From a virus (taxonomy: Duplodnaviria; Heunggongvirae; Uroviricota; Caudoviricetes): 7,472 nt of DNA. The position numbers and the translations under genes were made by a program. Positions 1-7,472 of the stretch are shown here, in pieces (positions within the stretch are counted from its first letter, which is position 1; every line of letters begins with the position of its first letter). The stretch spans positions 1 through 7,472 of the IMG/VR virus record IMGVR_UViG_2660238346_000032, one strand, 5' to 3'. The notes below the pieces were generated by a model that saw only the letters and a program-made list of their open reading frames with translations, had not been told where the DNA came from and ran no database searches.

Positions 1-74
1 TCCGTAACGCCTCTGCCACGCGCGTAACGTGACAGGGATTAAGGGTAAACTAATTGATTTTGCAAGTTTTTATT

Positions 75-1361
75 TTACCCAGCTTTCTTATGGGGCATAC
101 ATGGGACACTTTCAGATAGTCTTTTGTTAAGGAGTTCTGTCTGTTCGTGATTGTTGTCTTTCATCCATGCTCCGTAAACATTGAATACCATTTGTGCGTT
201 TGTGTGGCCCATCTGGCTTGCGATAAAACTAGGATTAGCTCCTGCGGCAAGTGACCAGCATGCATAAGTATGCCTGGATTGGTACGATTTTCTGTGTCTC
301 AGACCTGCGCGTTTTAAGATACTTGTCCATGACTCCCTGATGGAGTCAACCTTGTAGTGAGGTCCGGACAACTGCTGCTGTTTTGTTACCTGAGGACTAA
401 AAACAAAAGTGCATTTATGCACAGCAGTTCTCCCATATTCCCTCTGCTTCACCTCTACAGAATGTTGCTTTCCAAGCATGGTCATTTCCGCCTGGCTTTT
501 AAGAGCATCAATAGCTGGTTGAACCAGATGAATTGTCCTTCCGGTGCCTGCATCGGTTTTTGGTGGAGTGAATTCGCCAAGTTTTGTATAATTTCTACGG
601 ATGGTTATAGTCCTTGCTTTAAGGTCTATATCTTCCCATGCCAGCGATACCAACTCCCCGTGACGAATACCCGTGTATACAGCGAGAATCCACAGGTTTT
701 TTGTTTGTTGATGACGGCAAGCCTCAATAAAACGAATAAATTCGTCACGGGTGAGAGGATCTGGTTTTACCTTGGACTTTTTTAAGGGAGCCAGACCGTT
801 AAATGGGTTTCCTGAGGTATAACCATTATCTGTTGCAAATTGAAACATTCCAGCTATGGTTGTCATATAGTAGTTTACCGTGACCACTGAGCGCCCTTTT
901 ATGGAAGAAGTCTTTCCATTAGAAAGCTTTTGGTAACCGGTCAACAAATCTCTCCTTACGAAAAGTAAATCCTCTTTTGTTATGGATGAAACCAGTTTTT
1001 TTTCACCTAACATTGGTAACATGTTTTTAATTACTGACTGGTAACGGTTAAGTGCATTCGCACAAATCTCAATTTTCTTAAGGTCCAACCATTTTTCCGA
1101 AAGTGCCTTAACGGTTATCTCTCTTTTTCCCAGACCAAAGTGTTTCAGGTTAGGGGAATTAGGGAACTGCGCGGCATAGTCGAAACTCCCCATTCTGATT
1201 GCAAAACAAACGGAAGTGCGAAGTTCACCAGCGATCTTCCGGTTTTTGGCTGTGTCAGGAACACCGAGGTTTTCTCTGACACGTTTGCCATTATAGTGAA
1301 ACCATATACGGAGTGATCCTCCATGGTTTTCAACGCCTGTCGGGTATGATGCGTTACTCAT
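75..1361 (-). CDS. int: Phage tyrosine integrase (lambdoid prophage Int, IntR-like)
   Basis: 428-aa ORF. ATG at 1361..1359 is preceded by GGGAGG with a 5-nt spacer. C-terminal region carries the tyrosine-recombinase catalytic signature (TGIRHGEL, SRHTYAC, MGHTNAQMVFNVYGAW, i.e. R / HxxR / Y). Overall architecture resembles E. coli Rac-type IntR as recalled from memory. It is the first gene at the left end of the block, as expected for a prophage integrase. Confidence 0.9.
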   Translation of the reverse strand: MSNASYPTGVENHGGSLRIWFHYNGKRVRENLGVPDTAKNRKIAGELRTSVCFAIRMGSFDYAAQFPNSPNLKHFGLGKREITVKALSEKWLDLKKIEICANALNRYQSVIKNMLPMLGEKKLVSSITKEDLLFVRRDLLTGYQKLSNGKTSSIKGRSVVTVNYYMTTIAGMFQFATDNGYTSGNPFNGLAPLKKSKVKPDPLTRDEFIRFIEACRHQQTKNLWILAVYTGIRHGELVSLAWEDIDLKARTITIRRNYTKLGEFTPPKTDAGTGRTIHLVQPAIDALKSQAEMTMLGKQHSVEVKQREYGRTAVHKCTFVFSPQVTKQQQLSGPHYKVDSIRESWTSILKRAGLRHRKSYQSRHTYACWSLAAGANPSFIASQMGHTNAQMVFNVYGAWMKDNNHEQTELLNKRLSESVPCMPHKKAG

Positions 1362-1394
1362 TAAACCTCCCAGACGTCCAGGAGCATTAACAGG

Positions 1395-1649
1395 TTAACC
1401 GGAACTTGCATTTTTGGCACCTGGTTGTTTCTGGTTTTCGATCCATCGCATAATTTCTTCGATGTTGTACAGGCATTCACTGTAGTGCCCCGGATCACCT
1501 TCTACAGCGTAATGGCGGTATTCTTTTCCCTGCATCCATGACTTTCTTCTTGCCCGCTCAATGGTGCCAGGCTTTAGCCCTGTTGATGCAATGAGGACTC
1601 TCTCCGTACACCATTTGCTGGGGGTTATCTGATAGATGATTGTCTGCAT
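1395..1649 (-). CDS. xis: Putative excisionase / excisionase-like DNA-binding protein
   Basis: 84-aa ORF immediately upstream of int with a 33-nt gap, in the same orientation. ATG at 1649 is preceded by GAGGT. Small basic protein (WCTERV, ERARRKSW, GKEYRHYA) in the canonical xis position. Family assignment rests on position and size, not on a verified alignment. Confidence 0.55.
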   Translation of the reverse strand: MQTIIYQITPSKWCTERVLIASTGLKPGTIERARRKSWMQGKEYRHYAVEGDPGHYSECLYNIEEIMRWIENQKQPGAKNASSG

Positions 1650-1667
1650 GCCAACCTCATAAAATTT

Positions 1668-1802
1668 TCATCCACGGCAGTGGCACCACACGTCAAACAT
1701 TCGCTTCACAACTTCACGACAGTAGAAGCCGTCAACATCTCGCGTCAGGTCATAGCGATTGCCGTAACGCTGGTGGACCCATCGTTCAAATGCTTTATTC
1801 AT
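1668..1802 (-). CDS. Small hypothetical protein (44 aa, Cys/His-containing), not in the supplied ORF track
   Basis: Hand translation of the minus strand gives MNKAFERWVHQRYGNRYDLTRDVDGFYCREVVKRMFDVWCHCRG with a TGA stop at 1668..1670. ATG at 1802..1800 is preceded by AAGGAAG with about a 7-nt spacer. It fills the gap between the upstream gene stop (1806..1808) and the xis start exactly. Three Cys and two His (C28, C41, H42, C43, H10) could form a small metal-binding site. Confidence 0.4.
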   Translation of the reverse strand: MNKAFERWVHQRYGNRYDLTRDVDGFYCREVVKRMFDVWCHCRG

Positions 1803-1805
1803 TCT

Positions 1806-2048
1806 TTACTTCCTTTTTATGGCTCGTAATTTTTTCAGGTGCTTTTCCTGCTCAGTGTCCGCGAGAATTTTGCGGTACTCCTGGTGGTCAATATGTTCGA
1901 ACAGGCTGTTGAACTCAGTGATGCGTACCCGCCCGGATCGTCCGTCCATCCGTCGAAAGAACACTGAGTGCTCAGTGATGCGAGTAATCACCACGGGGTA
2001 TCCGGCTCTGTCCGTGTATATCTGCCCGCGTTGAATCAAAGCGAACAT
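1806..2048 (-). CDS. Hypothetical phage protein (80 aa from ATG 2048; track ORF extends to a TTG at 2084)
   Basis: ORF in the same orientation and tightly packed. The first ATG is at 2048..2046 (MFALIQRGQIYTDRAGYPVVITRITEH...), preceded by a weak GGGGA SD. The track's longer 92-aa form starts at a TTG with no SD. Contains an internal RITE(H/F) repeat. No family recognised. Confidence 0.5.
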   Translation of the reverse strand: MFALIQRGQIYTDRAGYPVVITRITEHSVFFRRMDGRSGRVRITEFNSLFEHIDHQEYRKILADTEQEKHLKKLRAIKRK

Positions 2049-2132
2049 GTGGTTATCCCCATCGACAAATCGAGTACACAACAAACGCTGCTGCGAATAC
2101 CATCCCCAGAGTTACGATTGCATCAGGCCAGC

Positions 2133-2498
2133 TCATTGATTCACCTCCTGCGGCGGCTCCGGTAGCGGCATCCAGTGGGTTACTTTCGATGCCGGTTCTT
2201 CCCCATTGTCAGTAACTGCCCACCATTTGTTTCTCGAACAATCGTAATACCCTTCGAAGGTATCGCACTCAGTCCAGCCGTAAGACTTACCCCAACACCA
2301 AACATACTGTTTATCGTTCGGCATTCGCTCACTACAGCTTATCCAGCCATCCGTAGTTACCGGAGAATTGCCAGCCTTGCGCATGGCAATCTCCATGATT
2401 TCAACCATATCCCCTGGTGGAATTTTACAATGCTGACCAGTATGCCTCTGCTGTCTGGCATATTCGAGGATGTGCTCCAGCTTGGTACGATTAATCAT
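2133..2498 (-). CDS. DUF551-domain phage protein
   Basis: 121-aa ORF. The C-terminal half (WISCSERMP ... VTHWMPLPEPP) matches the characteristic DUF551 W...W / THWMPLPEPP pattern seen in many enterobacterial prophage proteins. ATG at 2498 overlaps the upstream stop as ATGA and is preceded by GGGAGA. Confidence 0.7.
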   Translation of the reverse strand: MINRTKLEHILEYARQQRHTGQHCKIPPGDMVEIMEIAMRKAGNSPVTTDGWISCSERMPNDKQYVWCWGKSYGWTECDTFEGYYDCSRNKWWAVTDNGEEPASKVTHWMPLPEPPQEVNQ

Positions 2499-3004
2499 GA
2501 TTTATCTCCCTTAAGCATGGCAGCGCGGCAGGCATCCTCTACGCCCTTAACTGCATCTGCGCAGTAGTTATAGCGATTGCATTCCACTAACTTCTGCTTG
2601 AGATTTTCAATTGATTGCGCGATATCAGCCTGTATTACCGGAGCTGGCGGAACGGCTGTCTGCACTCGAACGTCATCAGGTACTACCGGCTCTACTGCCA
2701 ACTGACTGGCATATTTGTTAATGGTAACGATAAGCTCTTGCTCGGCCTCATCCAGACAATCACCGATACCTCGCCTGTCACCATCAAAATCATCGAAATC
2801 GGCGCGAATCCTGGCAACCTCCCGGATTGCGGACAACACCTCACCAGGAATTACCGTAGAGTTGCCCGATAGTACATTCTGCTCCAGTGATGCCAGTGCA
2901 ATCCGTGCCAGCTCACGAATCTCACCGCCGTCTATATCGTCAATGTCATCACGGCCAGAAATGTTAGCCAGCCATTGCAGTCGCTCTTTGGTAATAGTGA
3001 TCAT
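2495..3004 (-). CDS. Hypothetical acidic phage protein (169 aa)
   Basis: ATG at 3004 overlaps the upstream gene stop as ATGA and is preceded by AAGGAA. Strongly acidic composition (DDIDDIDGGE, ADFDDFDGD). N-terminus MITITKERL resembles the N-terminus of the 101-aa protein at 4179..4484. Confidence 0.6.
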   Translation of the reverse strand: MITITKERLQWLANISGRDDIDDIDGGEIRELARIALASLEQNVLSGNSTVIPGEVLSAIREVARIRADFDDFDGDRRGIGDCLDEAEQELIVTINKYASQLAVEPVVPDDVRVQTAVPPAPVIQADIAQSIENLKQKLVECNRYNYCADAVKGVEDACRAAMLKGDKS

Positions 3005-3516
3005 GCCGCGTTTCCTTCTTCCTTATTAACAATTACACCGTCATATATTTCATTAAGGTGCCCTCTCAACTCCATGCGCCTTAATGCAGATAACATGTAA
3101 TCGCATTCAACCTGCTTATTCCCAGTAAATGGCTTATCGTCAGGATTACCCCAACAGCAATTACCCCTGGGCCATCCATGTACTTTCCGTACTCTTCCGT
3201 TAACAACGTGAAGTAATCCCCAGCCGGGAGGTAAATCCTCAACTGAAATAATTTCCGGCTCACTAATAAAGAATCGCCAGTCGCCCATGCCAAGTGAGGG
3301 ATTTTTACGGAAACGCTTTTTTCTATCTGCCAACAAGTCAGCACGAGAACACTTCGCTTCTATCAGGCATGATGCTGAATTTCTGAATCCCATAGCATCT
3401 GGCTGTTCTCCGGTACTGGTTACAGCTATAAAGCGGTCATGAAAACAAACCTTGAACCCGTTGCGCTTAAGGAACTTGTACGCAATCTGACAGAGTTCGC
3501 GGTGTGTTAACGCCAT
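3001..3516 (-). CDS. Putative PD-(D/E)xK-fold nuclease-like protein (171 aa)
   Basis: The track ORF runs to 3597 but would overlap the upstream gene by about 80 nt. ATG at 3516..3514 (MALTHRELCQ...) is preceded by AAGGAGAG and lies 1 nt after the upstream stop. Motif E7 ... G-E-Q-P-D40 ... L-I-E53-A-K55 has the spacing (12 residues between D and ExK) and context of Hjc/VRR-NUC/RecB-like PD-(D/E)xK nucleases. The C-terminal roughly 90 aa (GWGLLHVVNGR ... CCWGNPDD) is unrecognised. Confidence 0.55.
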   Translation of the reverse strand: MALTHRELCQIAYKFLKRNGFKVCFHDRFIAVTSTGEQPDAMGFRNSASCLIEAKCSRADLLADRKKRFRKNPSLGMGDWRFFISEPEIISVEDLPPGWGLLHVVNGRVRKVHGWPRGNCCWGNPDDKPFTGNKQVECDYMLSALRRMELRGHLNEIYDGVIVNKEEGNAA

Positions 3517-3517
3517 A

Positions 3518-4192
3518 TCACTCTCCTTTGATGCGAATGCCAGCGGCGCGTGGCACATTAACTTCCACGATGCGCACAGTTGGTTTGTACATCTCAATCG
3601 CTGTCAGCCAGTCAGCGCCAGTCATGCGCTTTTCTGCATCGCCATTAGTCCACTTAACCGGTACACCAATAGCCTTCATCGCGATTTCTATTTCCCCGGC
3701 AATGGCGCTTTTTCCGCAACCAGTAAAACCAGAAACAACGACAAGAACTTCACCTTTGGCTGGTTTTATTTCCCGTGCTTCCAGTTCAGCAATACGCTTA
3801 CTTCCATCCGAGATAACACCTTCGTAATACTCACGCTGCTCGTTGAGTTTTGATTTTGCCGACTCCAGTTGTTTTGTTAGTTCCGCAATACGGCAAACAT
3901 CGTTGATACGCGTTTCCTCTAATGCGTTGATCTCATCCAGTAGTGCCAAAGCAACCTTTGGATTAAAGGCAGCAATAAATTCAGCGTTTGCGTAAGCCTG
4001 AGCATCTGTTTCAACCAGGCAGTTAACATGACATTCTGCAATCACGCCACCGGGTTCTCCTTTCCATTTTTGGCAAACAAAAACTCCTGTTAAATTGCCG
4101 TGCTGGTTAACAGATGTATGCCCTACGATGTAGCTTCCTTTAGTTGCTTTCTCTGCCTTTTCACGCAGTGCCTGATAGTTAATCTCGCTCAC
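3518..4192 (-). CDS. Ea22-like (Ead/Ea22 family) protein with coiled-coil and P-loop-like C-terminal module
   Basis: The most plausible start is GTG at 4192..4190, preceded by a perfect AAGGAGG with a 6-nt spacer. The track's 4234 start is a TTG without an SD. N-terminus SEINYQALREKAEKATKG ... AEFIAAFNPKVALALLDE resembles the Ead/Ea22-like N-terminal domain as recalled from memory. The central segment is heptad-like (LEETRINDVCRIAELTKQLESAKSKLNEQREYYE). The C-terminus contains VLVVVSGFTGCGKSAIAGEIEIAMKAIG, i.e. a strand plus GxxxxGKS Walker-A-like loop plus helix. Confidence 0.65.
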   Translation of the reverse strand: MSEINYQALREKAEKATKGSYIVGHTSVNQHGNLTGVFVCQKWKGEPGGVIAECHVNCLVETDAQAYANAEFIAAFNPKVALALLDEINALEETRINDVCRIAELTKQLESAKSKLNEQREYYEGVISDGSKRIAELEAREIKPAKGEVLVVVSGFTGCGKSAIAGEIEIAMKAIGVPVKWTNGDAEKRMTGADWLTAIEMYKPTVRIVEVNVPRAAGIRIKGE

Positions 4193-4484
4193 TGGCTGCC
4201 TCCTTTGCTGGGCTTTCGAATATATCAAACTCAAACAACTTAACTACGTCATCAAACAGGACATAATCGCCATCAGAATCTTCAGTCATGTCAGCGCCAC
4301 AATCCTGACCGAACGAGTCACAACCACCCATATCAAGCTCGTATCGCTTGAGTTTTGCGATATTTGATAAATTCAGCGCCAGTACAGCAAGGTCATAAAC
4401 CTCGTCAGCGGTATACCCTGCACCATGCCCATACATTTCAATGCGGGATATGATTTCTTCTACACGTTGTTTTGTGATTGTCAT
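4179..4484 (-). CDS. Hypothetical highly acidic small protein (101 aa)
   Basis: ATG at 4484 overlaps the upstream stop as ATGA and is preceded by GGGAGGTGA. I count roughly 23 Asp/Glu against 9 Lys/Arg, with an acidic C-terminal tail (DMTEDSDGDYVLFDDVVKLFEFDIFE). N-terminal MTITKQRV resembles the N-terminus of the 2495..3004 protein. Confidence 0.6.
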   Translation of the reverse strand: MTITKQRVEEIISRIEMYGHGAGYTADEVYDLAVLALNLSNIAKLKRYELDMGGCDSFGQDCGADMTEDSDGDYVLFDDVVKLFEFDIFESPAKEAASERD

Positions 4485-4966
4485 TTTTGCTCACCTCCCT
4501 GTTCTTCCAGAAAAATACGCATAGCCTCAAGCATCTCTTCGGTGTCATACGGTGACAACTTGTCACGCAGGATGTGTTCAATGCTGTTAACGAACTTGCG
4601 GATTGCTTTGCGTTCAATTTCAGCCAGGAAAGCGTCTGTAGCCGGGGTTTGCGGCATACCTCCGTCTGTTGCGCAGATATACGCATCAGATAGTTCATCC
4701 TGCTCGCCATCAAACACGTAGCAACTCTGTACGATAAATTTATTCAGCCCCGCACTCTCCGCTGCCAGCGCCGCGCACTTGGCCTCAAGGTTATCAATCG
4801 TGATTCCAGCAGAACGACACTCCCGCAACGCCGTTTCTAGTTTTGATTCAAGTTCACCGAACTTACGGACAAGATATTCAGCGTTTGTTTCGTTAACCTT
4901 TAAATCTCGGGGGATGCATTTACCTTTCAGAAATCCATCCATCTCAATTAGTGACATTTGTTTCAT
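4481..4966 (-). CDS. Hypothetical acidic phage protein (161 aa)
   Basis: ATG at 4966 is preceded by GGAG. It is the first gene after a 171-bp gap and is followed by ATGA-coupled downstream genes. Acidic, with a predicted helical/coiled-coil central segment. No family recognised. Confidence 0.6.
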
Positions 4967-5137
4967 TTCTTCCCACTCCGCAACATCGCATTCAGATATT
5001 TGTTTTGATTTACTGATGGAAAAGAATTTCTCTTAAGCAATTCCTCTCTCGATGGCATTGGCTTTACGCGTTGGTGAATAATCATTTCTGCCGGAAGAAT
5101 GCCGGGGTTGTATGCAAGTCATCTCATGGTAAATTCC

Positions 5138-5431
5138 TCAGTCATTACTGATAGCGCCATAGCGTGATCGGTAATTACGCAGGCGCGGGTCAATTTCAGG
5201 GAAGTGGGTATATGTGGCTTTGCGGAATGGTCGGATTGATGTCTGGTAAATTCGCTCGCGTTCTTCTTTCTCTGCAAGCCATATACAATGGCGAAATTCC
5301 TTTTCCTCTTTCGTTTCCTGCGGTAGCGACATTATCCGGTCGTAGTTTTTTCTGAATTTATCCAGCACCTCCGATACGGAATTGCCGGAACAGCGGCGCG
5401 CGTCGTCCGCACCATAGAGAGGCGCTGGCAT
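5138..5431 (-). CDS. Hypothetical phage protein (97 aa)
   Basis: ATG at 5431 is preceded by AGGAG with a 7-nt spacer, 13 nt downstream of the ssb stop. Charged protein (KEEKEFRHCIWLAEKEERER). No family recognised. Confidence 0.55.
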   Translation of the reverse strand: MPAPLYGADDARRCSGNSVSEVLDKFRKNYDRIMSLPQETKEEKEFRHCIWLAEKEERERIYQTSIRPFRKATYTHFPEIDPRLRNYRSRYGAISND

Positions 5432-5444
5432 GATTTTCTCCTGA

Positions 5445-5951
5445 TTAAATTGCGTGAATAGCGTGACGAGGGAAGGGGAGAGTTACTGGTGCAAAGGGTA
5501 TATCGTCGTCAAAATCCATCGGAGGTTCGTTGTGTTGTGCTGGTGATGATTGCTGCTGTGGCTTCTGTGATTGCCTGCTGGCTGCTTGTTGTTTGCTGTC
5601 GCCAATGCCGCCAAGCATTTGCATCACGCCATTAATTCCGACATGAACCTCGGTTGTGTAACGGTCTTGCCCTGACTGGTCTTTCCACTTTCTGGTTCTC
5701 AGCATTCCCTCGAAATAAATCTGATCACCTTTTTTCACATACTGCCCCACGACCCCAGCCAGTTTCCCGGATACAGCAACACGATACCATTCAGTCAATT
5801 CCTTTTGCTCGCCAGTATTTTTATCTCGCCATTGTTCTGACGTGGCTATTGTCAGGTTAGCGAACGCTGTACCTGATGGTGAGTATCGAACTTCCGGGTC
5901 TTGTCCTACCCGACCAAGGATAATCACCTTATTTATCCCGCGAGAACTCAT
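5445..5951 (-). CDS. ssb: Single-stranded DNA-binding protein (prophage SSB) with atypical C-terminal extension
   Basis: Probable start is ATG at 5951..5949 ([23 protein letters not shown]...), preceded by GAGGTGGAG. The track start at 5960 is a GTG three codons upstream. The OB-fold region aligns closely with E. coli SSB ([23 protein letters not shown] ... [19 protein letters not shown]) as recalled from memory, followed by a Q/S/P-rich linker and the conserved acidic tip [11 protein letters not shown]. The ORF then continues 15 codons ([15 protein letters not shown]) before TAA at 5445..5447. Confidence 0.9.
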
Positions 5952-6415
5952 TTGCTCCACCTCTTGCCAGTTTTTATGTTGCTTATAATTGATTGAGATA
6001 CACCCATGTCTTTTGCTATCTTGTACTGACTCTCTTTTTCAGAGAGTCTTTTCCTGATTTCTATAACCTGCCACTCTGTTAATTTTGCACCATGATGAGC
6101 ATGACCTTTTTTTGCTCCACGATGCCTTCCTTTTGCTATCTTGTCGTCCATGTTTTCTTGCGCGCTACCTAAAAAGAGATGTTCAGGATTAACGCAGCAT
6201 GGGTTATCGCATTTGTGGCAAACCATCTTCCCAGATGGGATGGGGGAGTGATAAAGCTCAAAAGCAACCCGATGAGAAAGCATTGTTACGCCAAAGGCTA
6301 CAAATTTTGTGTATCCTCCTTTGTTTTTTGAATAGGTAGACTCCCAGCAACCTGTTGTTTCATTAACTTTGTAGCTGGACTCGAATCTTTTAATAATTCC
6401 GTCCAAGTGAGACAT
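5948..6415 (-). CDS. HNH endonuclease (HNH_3-type homing-endonuclease-like) with C-terminal putative DNA-binding region
   Basis: 155-aa [17 protein letters not shown] ... [42 protein letters not shown] matches the phage HNH_3 pattern (GCWE, KGGY, HR, CH.CDN..C.NP.HL). ATG at 6415..6413 abuts the upstream TAA stop (6416..6418). Its TGA stop (5948..5950) overlaps the ssb ATG as ATGA. Confidence 0.85.
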
Positions 6416-7123
6416 TTATGCCGCCTGTTTTAGTTCGTTAACTCTGATGTTCATTACATGAACGCATTTAGCCTGCGCATCCTCATTGCCAGCCATTAAT
6501 TGCCAGTCATGCTGATAACGTTCGATGAGTTTTTTCTTGTCAGTTTCTGTCGACGCATAATCGCTGAAGTCTTTCAGGATTTGTTCGCAGTCAACCGATG
6601 GAGATTTCTGGTTGGTATTTTCTGGTGATGGTTGATTGCCAGATGCTGGTATTGCCCATCCCGGCAGCGATGGAGGGGACCAGTAAAATCCTGTTCCATC
6701 CTTAAGTTTTTCCCTGTGCCATCCCTGCTTTTTATCGAGAGATGTTTGTGCGAAACCTTCCTCAAGGTTATACAGATACCGACCGATTCCCCACTGAACG
6801 GCAGCGCGCTTCATTGCACTGGAACGACCACCTTTTACGGCTTCTACCTGCGTGTTTTCAGCAGCATCCCATTTGGTTACCCATTCGGAATCAATCCTGA
6901 TTGATATGCCGCATTCAACGCCTCCGTTGTTGGGAATATCGCGGTATTCATTGCGCCATCCTGCTTTGCCGCAAACATCGTCCAGGCGTTTCATGATTGC
7001 CCTGTTCGTGACATAAGCCAGCACCATAGCCCACACCTTTCCATCGCGTGTTTTACCGCTTTGCTGTATTCGCCATTCGATATCTTCAGGGCTGAATGGC
7101 TCATCGAATTTATTCAAATCCAT
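6416..7123 (-). CDS. Single-strand annealing protein / phage recombinase, Rad52(Sak)-like
   Basis: 235-aa ORF. ATG at 7123 is preceded by GAGGTGA with a 5-nt spacer. Segment YVTNRAIMKRLDDVCGKAGW aligns position-for-position with the Rad52 core [20 protein letters not shown], and AMKRAAVQWGIGRYLY matches the conserved SSAP motif. It sits next to ssb, as in a recombination module. Confidence 0.7.
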   Translation of the reverse strand: MDLNKFDEPFSPEDIEWRIQQSGKTRDGKVWAMVLAYVTNRAIMKRLDDVCGKAGWRNEYRDIPNNGGVECGISIRIDSEWVTKWDAAENTQVEAVKGGRSSAMKRAAVQWGIGRYLYNLEEGFAQTSLDKKQGWHREKLKDGTGFYWSPPSLPGWAIPASGNQPSPENTNQKSPSVDCEQILKDFSDYASTETDKKKLIERYQHDWQLMAGNEDAQAKCVHVMNIRVNELKQAA

Positions 7124-7131
7124 AATTCACC

Positions 7132-7302
7132 TCAGAATGGACATAGCCCAAGGAAATAACGCTGATTTAATACTTCGACTCGGGACAAATTAAGGCATAC
7201 CCGCATTCCTTCGCGGTCACCATTATGGCGATACCAGAGAGCTTTCTGCGTGTATATGCGTCTCTGTAACTTGCTCTCCTTCACTGTGGTTGCAAGTGAC
7301 AT
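7132..7302 (-). CDS. Small hypothetical protein (56 aa) or remnant of a gene disrupted by the adjacent IS
   Basis: ATG at 7302..7300 (MSLATTVKESKLQRRIYTQKALWYRHNGDREGMRVCLNLSRVEVLNQRYFLGLCPF) is preceded by AGGAGA with a 5-nt spacer. The track start at 7338 is a GTG that lies inside the presumed IS end. The ORF stops 8 nt before the SSAP start. Confidence 0.35.
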   Translation of the reverse strand: MSLATTVKESKLQRRIYTQKALWYRHNGDREGMRVCLNLSRVEVLNQRYFLGLCPF

Positions 7303-7312
7303 GAATATCTCC

Positions 7313-7472
7313 TGAGGTAGCCTGAGTTTAACGGACACTCCTTCCTGAAATAGAATGGCATCAGAAGGAGCTAATAATGAGCAGAAAAACCCAACGTTAC
7401 TCTAAAGAGTTCAAAGCCGAAGCTGTCAGAACGGTTCTTGAAAATCAACTTTCGATCAGTGAAGGCGCTTCC
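7313..7472 (+). mobile_element. IS3-family insertion sequence, left end (partial; continues beyond window)
   Basis: A divergently oriented transposase OrfA begins at 7377. The roughly 65 bp upstream begins TGAGGTAGCC..., consistent with the TG-initiated left inverted repeat typical of IS3-family elements. The exact boundary at about 7313 is approximate. It resembles an IS600-like element from memory, which I could not verify. Confidence 0.6.
7377..7472 (+). CDS. IS3-family transposase OrfA (N-terminal 32 codons; truncated by window edge)
   Basis: ATG at 7377 is preceded by AAGGAG with about a 7-nt spacer. The translation MSRKTQRYSKEFKAEAVRTVLENQLSISEGAS has the N-terminal helix-turn-helix pattern (SxEFKxEAV ... 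LS.SE.A) of IS3-family OrfA proteins. Confidence 0.8.
   Translation, partial: MSRKTQRYSKEFKAEAVRTVLENQLSISEGAS

Follow-up and report, generated by a model that had tools for sequence, protein, structure and literature searches.

The Ea22-like gene of the window (the whole stretch of 7,472 nucleotides analysed here) ends in a 69-residue module that includes GFTGCGKS, and this module is an autonomous, mobile and self-contained unit of about 68 residues, which phages encode as a very small protein in its own right or attach to the end of a longer one as a plug-in domain. It has the look of the first half of the ATP-binding P-loop fold, is smaller than any curated P-loop family that it resembles, and almost certainly descends from the P-loop NTPase lineage. 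The reading that we favour, with some reserve, is that of a minimal phosphate- or nucleotide-binding unit that would act as an oligomer, with its terminal Glu as Walker B. Ea22-family proteins affect the lysis-lysogeny decision of lambdoid and Shiga-toxin phages; the literature describes their role as pro-lysogenic, they are not known to have a biochemical activity, and the conserved predicted phosphate-binding module provides a mutable handle (K161, S162, E210) on one Ea22 variant. The features discussed below are the following:

3518..4192, minus strand: Ea22-like gene, 224 aa, GTG start at 4192..4190 (most likely) and TGA stop at 3520..3518 (ORF list, Shine-Dalgarno, Pfam/PHROG alignment starts)
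3779..4189, minus strand: Ead/Ea22 N-terminal region plus long helix (coiled-coil part), aa 2-138 (Pfam PF13935)
3548..3754, minus strand: mini P-loop module, aa 147-215, GEVLVVVSGFTGCGKSAIAGEIEIAMKAIGVPVKWTNGDAEKRMTGADWLTAIEMYKPTVRIVEVNVPR (constant homology footprint, stand-alone proteins, AF2)
3707..3730, minus strand: Walker A / P-loop GFTGCGKS, aa 155-162, with Lys161 and Ser162 (read from the sequence; conservation; helix start)
3608..3634, minus strand: conserved segment EKxxT(G/H)ADW, aa 187-195 (E 1.00, K 0.98, T 0.97, A 0.98, D 0.99, W 0.98)
3563..3577, minus strand: last strand VRIVE, aa 206-210, candidate Walker B (hhhhE) with the near-invariant Glu210
3514..3529, minus strand: gene junction AAA GGA GAG TGA T ATG (read from the sequence)

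The Ea22-like gene and its surroundings

The minus-strand ORF at this locus covers 3518..4234 and has TTG as its mechanical start codon in the ORF list. The true start is most likely the GTG at 4192..4190, which gives 224 aa, because an AAGGAGG Shine-Dalgarno sequence (4199-4205) lies 6 nt upstream of it and because the Pfam Ead_Ea22 and PHROG alignments both begin at the residue that it encodes; the residue numbering used in the first-pass annotation of this DNA agrees with this start. The match to PF13935 (Ead_Ea22) has an E-value of 1.8e-28 and 100.3 bits, against a cut-off of 27, and covers the full model (1-139), and by its N-terminal domain the whole 224-aa protein can be assigned as a bona fide Ead/Ea22-like protein. 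A single-sequence AF2 prediction of the whole protein placed a long helix directly before the module, at low confidence; with a pLDDT of 50.7 this prediction was unusable as a model. The Ea22 proteins of lambda and of Stx phages are mosaics: they share their N-terminal part, their coiled coil is tetramerising and bears the Ead_Ea22 signature, and their C-terminal domains are unrelated to one another; according to the literature the full-length proteins are tetramers via the coiled coil and the C-terminal domains are swappable. The published descriptions of lambda- and Stx-phage Ea22 that were consulted make no mention of a P-loop, of ATP or of a P-loop variant.

At the 3' end, the ATG of the next gene (3516..3514) lies 1 nt past the TGA stop of the Ea22-like gene, and the last three codons of the latter (K-G-E) hold the AAGGAG ribosome-binding site of the former. 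A "+GE" ending of Ea22 proteins has been reported without an explanation (PMC7093339); as read from this junction, the Shine-Dalgarno sequence of the following gene probably accounts for this conserved C-terminal tripeptide.

The downstream gene itself (3001-3516, minus strand, 171 aa from its ATG) is translationally coupled to the Ea22-like gene. Its matches are to phrog_9263 (E 4.5e-121) and phrog_631, two families with no assigned function, and the string QPDAMGF...CLIEAKCS within it resembles a PD-(D/E)xK nuclease motif; no Pfam, NCBIfam or PDB match to this gene was found. We considered this gene as a partner of the module and discarded the idea, as other phages pair the same module with a different downstream gene. 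Elsewhere in the neighbourhood, phrog_60 (461 positions) is split over three minus-strand genes, that is, the N-terminus of the Ea22-like protein (1-103), ORF 2495-3004 (116-155) and the DUF551 ORF 2133-2498 (203-283), and ORF 4481-4966 shares phrog_368 with the Ea22-like protein; this looks like module shuffling or gene fission within an Ea22/DUF551 mosaic. The window as a whole (1-7472) is a lambdoid early-left region of mosaic make-up, of which no single close match spans more than 53%, and its annotated matches comprise an integrase, an excisionase, a DUF551 protein, the Ea22-like gene, SSB, an HNH endonuclease and a Rad52/Rad22-family recombinase.

Conservation and distribution of the module

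The segment VLVVVSGFTGCGKSAIAGEIEIAM (aa 149-172; 3677-3748 of the window, minus strand) embeds GFTGCGKS directly after the hydrophobic stretch VLVVVS; GFTGCGKS has the Walker A form GxxxxGK[ST] of P-loop NTPases, and the helix predicted by AF2 starts at its Lys. The members collected, 374 in all, were aligned with an HMM; in the P-loop columns, to which 373 of them extend, the loop reads G (0.99), x, x, G (1.00), x, G (0.99), K (1.00), S (1.00) and A (0.99), and the next helix turn is G-E-I-E-I (0.99-1.00). Thus, the Walker-A-like motif that the first-pass annotation had pointed out in the C-terminal domain is present as described, with 62 residues counted past GKS for the "about 60" given there, and the outcome that was to speak against it, a motif not conserved among homologues, was not observed, G..G.GKSA being 99-100% kept in the 373 members. 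The same alignment has a W after the second strand (replaced by Y in 9% of members) and a Y-K-P segment (0.97, 0.82 and 1.00), in addition to the EKxxT(G/H)ADW segment listed above, whose Glu and Trp are retained even in the copies of jumbo phages. Indeed, the Ralstonia and Burkholderia jumbo-phage copies, which are 35-40% identical, keep G..G.GKSA and the terminal Glu, and in an alignment that includes them the invariant positions are G, G, G, K, S, A, two more Gly, one Trp, the Glu of EK and the terminal Glu; a second Trp is invariant in a six-sequence alignment with the jumbo-phage copies. A conserved Arg able to serve as a finger is absent from the module family.

The last strand has the form V-x-[IL]-V-E, and its terminal residue is Glu in 370 of 371 members and Asp in the remaining one. 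The first-pass annotation had found no obvious hhhhDE Walker B; TVRIVE, which ends in this Glu 49 residues past the Lys of GKS, is nevertheless a good candidate, and Glu210 is a plausible Walker B residue. This feature is seen at the level of the sequence, the AF2 monomer having no DSSP strands by which Glu210 could be placed near the P-loop. The comparison with the copy of a Yersinia phage gave a non-synonymous divergence (pN) of 0.105, with synonymous divergence (pS) saturated at 0.80; by this measure the module is under purifying selection. The suggestion that it might be a "degenerate" nucleotide-binding module is therefore unlikely, because its motifs are near-invariant and selection is purifying.

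The extent of the family was assessed with the last 84 residues as query in an exhaustive phmmer search of 1.84 billion cluster representatives (clusters at 50% identity), which yielded 444 clusters at E<=1e-3 and 350 at E<=1e-10. All of the 150 representatives listed of these 444 share the same footprint of about 72 residues (query ~5-77), and among these 150 the module is C-terminal in 131, N-terminal in 11, internal in 6 and nearly the whole protein in 2. A second search, with a profile built from divergent (35-58%-identical) copies, retrieved 108 proteins, every one of them of at most 146 aa and many of 68-85 aa, that is, the module alone; no full-size relative was found among these 108 matches. 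The stand-alone proteins end 2-5 residues past the terminal Glu. Many members of the family, like the protein studied here, end in ...KGE or ...EGE.

As regards the stand-alone copies, one of 75 aa is a complete gene, with ATGA overlaps with its neighbours at both start and stop, and is located among the early genes of a Mu-like phage, with the transposase genes on one side and gemA on the other. Others are found in Achromobacter-type prophages between ERF/RecT/YqaJ recombination genes and methyltransferase/excisionase/integrase genes, a position that is the equivalent of that of ea22 in lambda, and further ones adjoin thyX in unclassified phage contigs. The prophages with stand-alone genes are of Mu-like and lambdoid type and belong to alpha-, beta- and gamma-proteobacteria, the three classes in which the representative genomes place the family as a whole. 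Among the copies at 35-58% identity in other phages, the module is N-terminal in gp37 of Burkholderia phage BcepC6B, and it is internal to a protein in the Ralstonia and Burkholderia jumbo phages of about 225 kb. The C-terminal part of BcepC6B gp37 (2417-3016) matches many PHROGs of unknown function (e.g., phrog_6628 and phrog_9763), and the cluster representatives P0198-P0239 have an N-terminal module followed by variable modules with repeated linkers (..AARQPVGEPV.., and ..DSQAVGNG at the C-terminus). The module is found among the interchangeable C-terminal domains of Ea22, as proposed previously under the heading of a "variable Ea22 C-terminal domain"; that description does not hold in so far as the module is not confined to Ea22 and also exists by itself, in proteins of 68-85 aa.

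The genomic context is always a phage early or accessory region. The partner domains of the multidomain members include Ead_Ea22, Lar, zinc-ribbon-like modules, one DUF4406 and many unknown PHROGs, with no common theme found among them, and no constant partner gene was found beside the stand-alone members; partner domains and neighbouring genes give no functional hint. Module DNA is carried by 365 of 5426 complete E. coli genomes (~7%), on chromosomes and on plasmids of about 92 kb. The latter account for 81 of 395 E. coli places (e.g., NZ_CP196034.1 and NZ_CP148392.1), and the module is also present in phage D6 (91 kb; NC_050154.1 82430-82693) and in phage JL22 (99.6 kb), which suggests carriage by phage-plasmids besides integrated lambdoid prophages. 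In E. coli O157:H7 TT12B (NZ_CP038494.1 3953636-3953856) a copy of the module DNA with 100% identity is not part of any annotated CDS; it lies downstream of replication genes and not int-proximal, and the annotation gives the Ea22-like gene on its upstream side as a pseudogene, "missing C-terminus". A 98%-identical module in the actinobacterial MAG "Collinsella sp." (JAIHTM010000290.1, a 3-kb contig) is most likely a mis-binned E. coli phage contig.

Predicted structure and proposed mode of action

The AF2 model of the module, built on a 68-sequence alignment, has a mean pLDDT of 77.8, with values of 84-91 over the first 40 residues, and contains helices at module residues 21-34 (starting from the Lys of GKS), 44-51 and 55-62. 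The reading of strand, GxxxxGKS loop and following helix made from the bare sequence was borne out in that the helix begins exactly at this Lys. DSSP assigned no strand to the monomer, its three extended segments being unpaired and without a hydrogen-bonded sheet; the model is compatible with a phosphate-binding loop, and as evidence it is not strong. A Foldseek search of this alignment-based model against the PDB gave no match, and one against BFVD gave a single match, a viral protein of 82 aa that is apparently another member of the family.

None of the Pfam, NCBIfam and PADLOC models gave a significant match to the module. Below threshold, 29 Pfam families were found, nearly all of them P-loop NTPases and aligned on strand 1, P-loop and helix 1; among 68 diverse members these matches were to AAA_16 (35), AAA_18 (26), APS_kinase (25), nSTAND_NTPase5 (24), AAA_30 (18) and ATPase_2 (11). 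The match to the APS kinase family (PF01583) is not full-length, as it covers profile positions 3-40 of 152 with 16-17 bits against a cut-off of 21.1. A complete STAND NTPase domain (nSTAND_NTPase5, PF25199; AAA_16) is not found either, the best score being 25.6 bits against 34; at most, positions 43-103 of the 145 of nSTAND_NTPase5 are aligned, in some cases from the P-loop to the terminal Glu (e.g., residues 5-68 against 43-103), and there is no helical sensor domain and nothing after the module. The three-layer alpha/beta/alpha core of P-loop NTPases, with a parallel sheet of at least five strands, is likewise lacking, because three strand segments only fit, the footprint ends 2-5 residues past the third, and some complete proteins have no more than 68-75 aa. 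Since the core sheet is absent and no curated match exceeds its threshold, we placed the module in no named family. Our search of the literature, incomplete in its coverage, found no paper on this module or on natural P-loop proteins this small.

The layout that we propose consists of strand 1, the Walker A loop (GxxGxGKS), helix 1, strand 2, a pair of short helices and strand 3 with the invariant Glu, which would match a P-loop NTPase core over about its first half and no further. The Lys and Ser of the P-loop would most likely hold, with Mg2+, the phosphates of a nucleotide or of another phosphate-rich ligand, and the Glu at the end of strand 3 would serve as the acidic residue of Walker B. 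The working unit is probably an oligomer, because three strands cannot form a closed site; by analogy with other Ea22 proteins, the Ea22 coiled coil would gather the copies in the present case. The other invariant polar residues (GEIEI, EK, T-x-ADW and Y-K-P) would give inter-subunit or ligand contacts, and the protein would act early in infection or induction, from the accessory region that runs from recombination genes to the integrase. A bolder version, which we put forward as a tentative possibility, is that these phage units of about 68 residues and three strands are the smallest natural P-loop proteins and bind (perhaps hydrolyse) NTP or polyphosphate only when assembled.

Other explanations were weighed against a minimal binding unit. 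The motif by itself is only mildly unlikely and hence suggestive, because shuffles of the Ea22-like protein contain the loose pattern [AG]xxxxGK[ST] in 2.7% of cases and the strict GxxGxGK[ST] in 0.1%; the former figure, and two further six-frame Walker A matches in the window (both within stop-interrupted frames, which are not genes), could be taken to indicate a chance event in a glycine-rich linker. Such an origin is hardly credible, given the rarity of the strict form and a motif invariant throughout the family, and we rejected it on conservation grounds; it is conservation, as judged from the aligned homologues, and not the motif string, that is decisive for a real Walker A. The module is also shorter than every canonical P-loop domain, and the Ea22-like gene that carries it is annotated as a pseudogene in one O157:H7 genome, as might be expected if it were a truncated, decaying and functionless remnant of a full-size NTPase gene fused to ea22. 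This is very improbable, and the conservation data effectively refute it: the module has constant boundaries across the 150 of 444 cluster representatives listed, intact stand-alone genes exist, the motifs are near-invariant with pN far below pS, and the module DNA persists in the 365 E. coli genomes mentioned above.

It is less easy to set aside the idea that the module is P-loop-shaped and binds no nucleotide, its invariant surface gripping instead a conserved host protein, a nucleic acid or polyphosphate, in aid of the pro-lysogenic role. Unusually many polar and aromatic positions outside the P-loop are invariant (GEIEI, EK, T-x-ADW, Y-K-P), designed P-loop prototypes bind ssDNA, RNA and polyphosphate besides NTPs, and nothing within 69 residues could perform base recognition. 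We nevertheless regard this reading as rather unlikely: invariance is highest at the Lys, the Ser and the Glu of hhhhE, which are the residues most characteristic of NTP-Mg chemistry, and the hosts span alpha-, beta- and gamma-proteobacteria, so that any protein target must be universal. A different function is that of a decoy, or poison subunit: as a phage-made imitation of the first half of an oligomeric P-loop ATPase of the host (e.g., a STAND- or AAA-type defence protein), the module would insert into the host complex and block it. The frequent weak matches of STAND type (AAA_16, nSTAND_NTPase5 and ATPase_2), some of which span the whole module, are in agreement with it, as is the location in early accessory regions, where anti-defence genes are common. 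All these matches are sub-threshold, though, and kinase-type families (APS_kinase, AAA_18, CoaE) are about equally frequent; PADLOC gave no significant match, and all 108 profile matches are of at most 146 aa, with no full-size relative, which makes a decoy quite improbable. We therefore retain the minimal, oligomeric phosphate- or nucleotide-binding unit as the preferred reading.

Comparison with known systems

The unannotated clusters phrog_11761 (E 6.3e-22, aa 145-238 of the 3518..4234 ORF), phrog_31825 (aa 161-227 of the same ORF) and phrog_250 cover the module, and the jumbo-phage protein SURPRISE13_138 is a full-length member of phrog_31825; these clusters carry no functional or structural description. 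As the family has no Pfam or NCBIfam model, a curated one would annotate several hundred protein clusters. Lambda Ea22 and the present protein share the Ead_Ea22 N-terminal region, the coiled coil and the K-G-E ending, and both genes lie in the early-left region between recombination and integrase and have a mosaic, swappable C-terminal domain. The module, however, is unrelated to the C-terminal domain of lambda Ea22, a dimeric alpha/beta domain for which an NMR structure is available (PMC10834534); the PDB sequence search with the module returned no lambda Ea22 chain even at E<=10.

With the N-terminal beta1-Walker A-alpha1-beta2 part of P-loop NTPases (APS kinase, AAA_16, nSTAND_NTPase5, and SIMIBI proteins such as BioD, ArsA, ParA/MinD and SRP54/FtsY) the module has in common the hydrophobic strand, GxxGxGKS and the helix, and also a hydrophobic strand ending in Glu about 49 residues past the Lys, as in Walker B. 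The structural superposition is weak and involves about 45-54 residues. APS kinase carries LDGD at the turn after strand 2, and the [ND]-G-[DQE] turn of the module at this point resembles it. In contrast to these NTPases, the module stops at the third strand and is without strands 4 and 5, a lid or base-binding element and sensor or finger residues, whereas its GEIEI, EK-x-x-T-x-ADW and Y-K-P motifs have no counterpart in the P-loop NTPase families.

Neither the module nor the family profile, each used as a query against PDB sequences, revealed a significant natural relative; the best matches of the family profile were man-made, namely the designed ATPase 9jix (PL2x4_2; E 0.0027) and the designed "phosphate-loop protein" 6c2u. 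This likeness reflects closeness to an idealised P-loop and carries no information on descent. The designed proteins (6c2u/6c2v, 9jix) and the P-loop prototypes are, like the module, very small beta-(P-loop)-alpha units; they differ in being a man-made consensus, whereas the module is natural and has extra invariant motifs. It has been proposed that a beta-alpha-beta fragment with a P-loop and an acidic residue at a strand tip was the seed of the P-loop lineage. Designed beta-(P-loop)-alpha polypeptides bind NTPs, polyphosphate and ssDNA, and do so only as oligomers (Vyas et al., bioRxiv 10.1101/2020.07.30.228619). The oligomer-only behaviour that we propose for the module would be that of these prototypes. 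Function of a half P-loop fold by self-assembly has so far been explored with designed polypeptides only, and a natural, strongly conserved P-loop unit as small as about 68 residues, found as a complete protein too, could allow a direct test of it. If the module should prove to be the smallest P-loop protein, working only when assembled, it would represent a nucleotide-dependent switch for the Ea22-type proteins that modulate lysogeny and, at the same time, a living counterpart of the designed "P-loop prototypes" that model the origin of NTPases.
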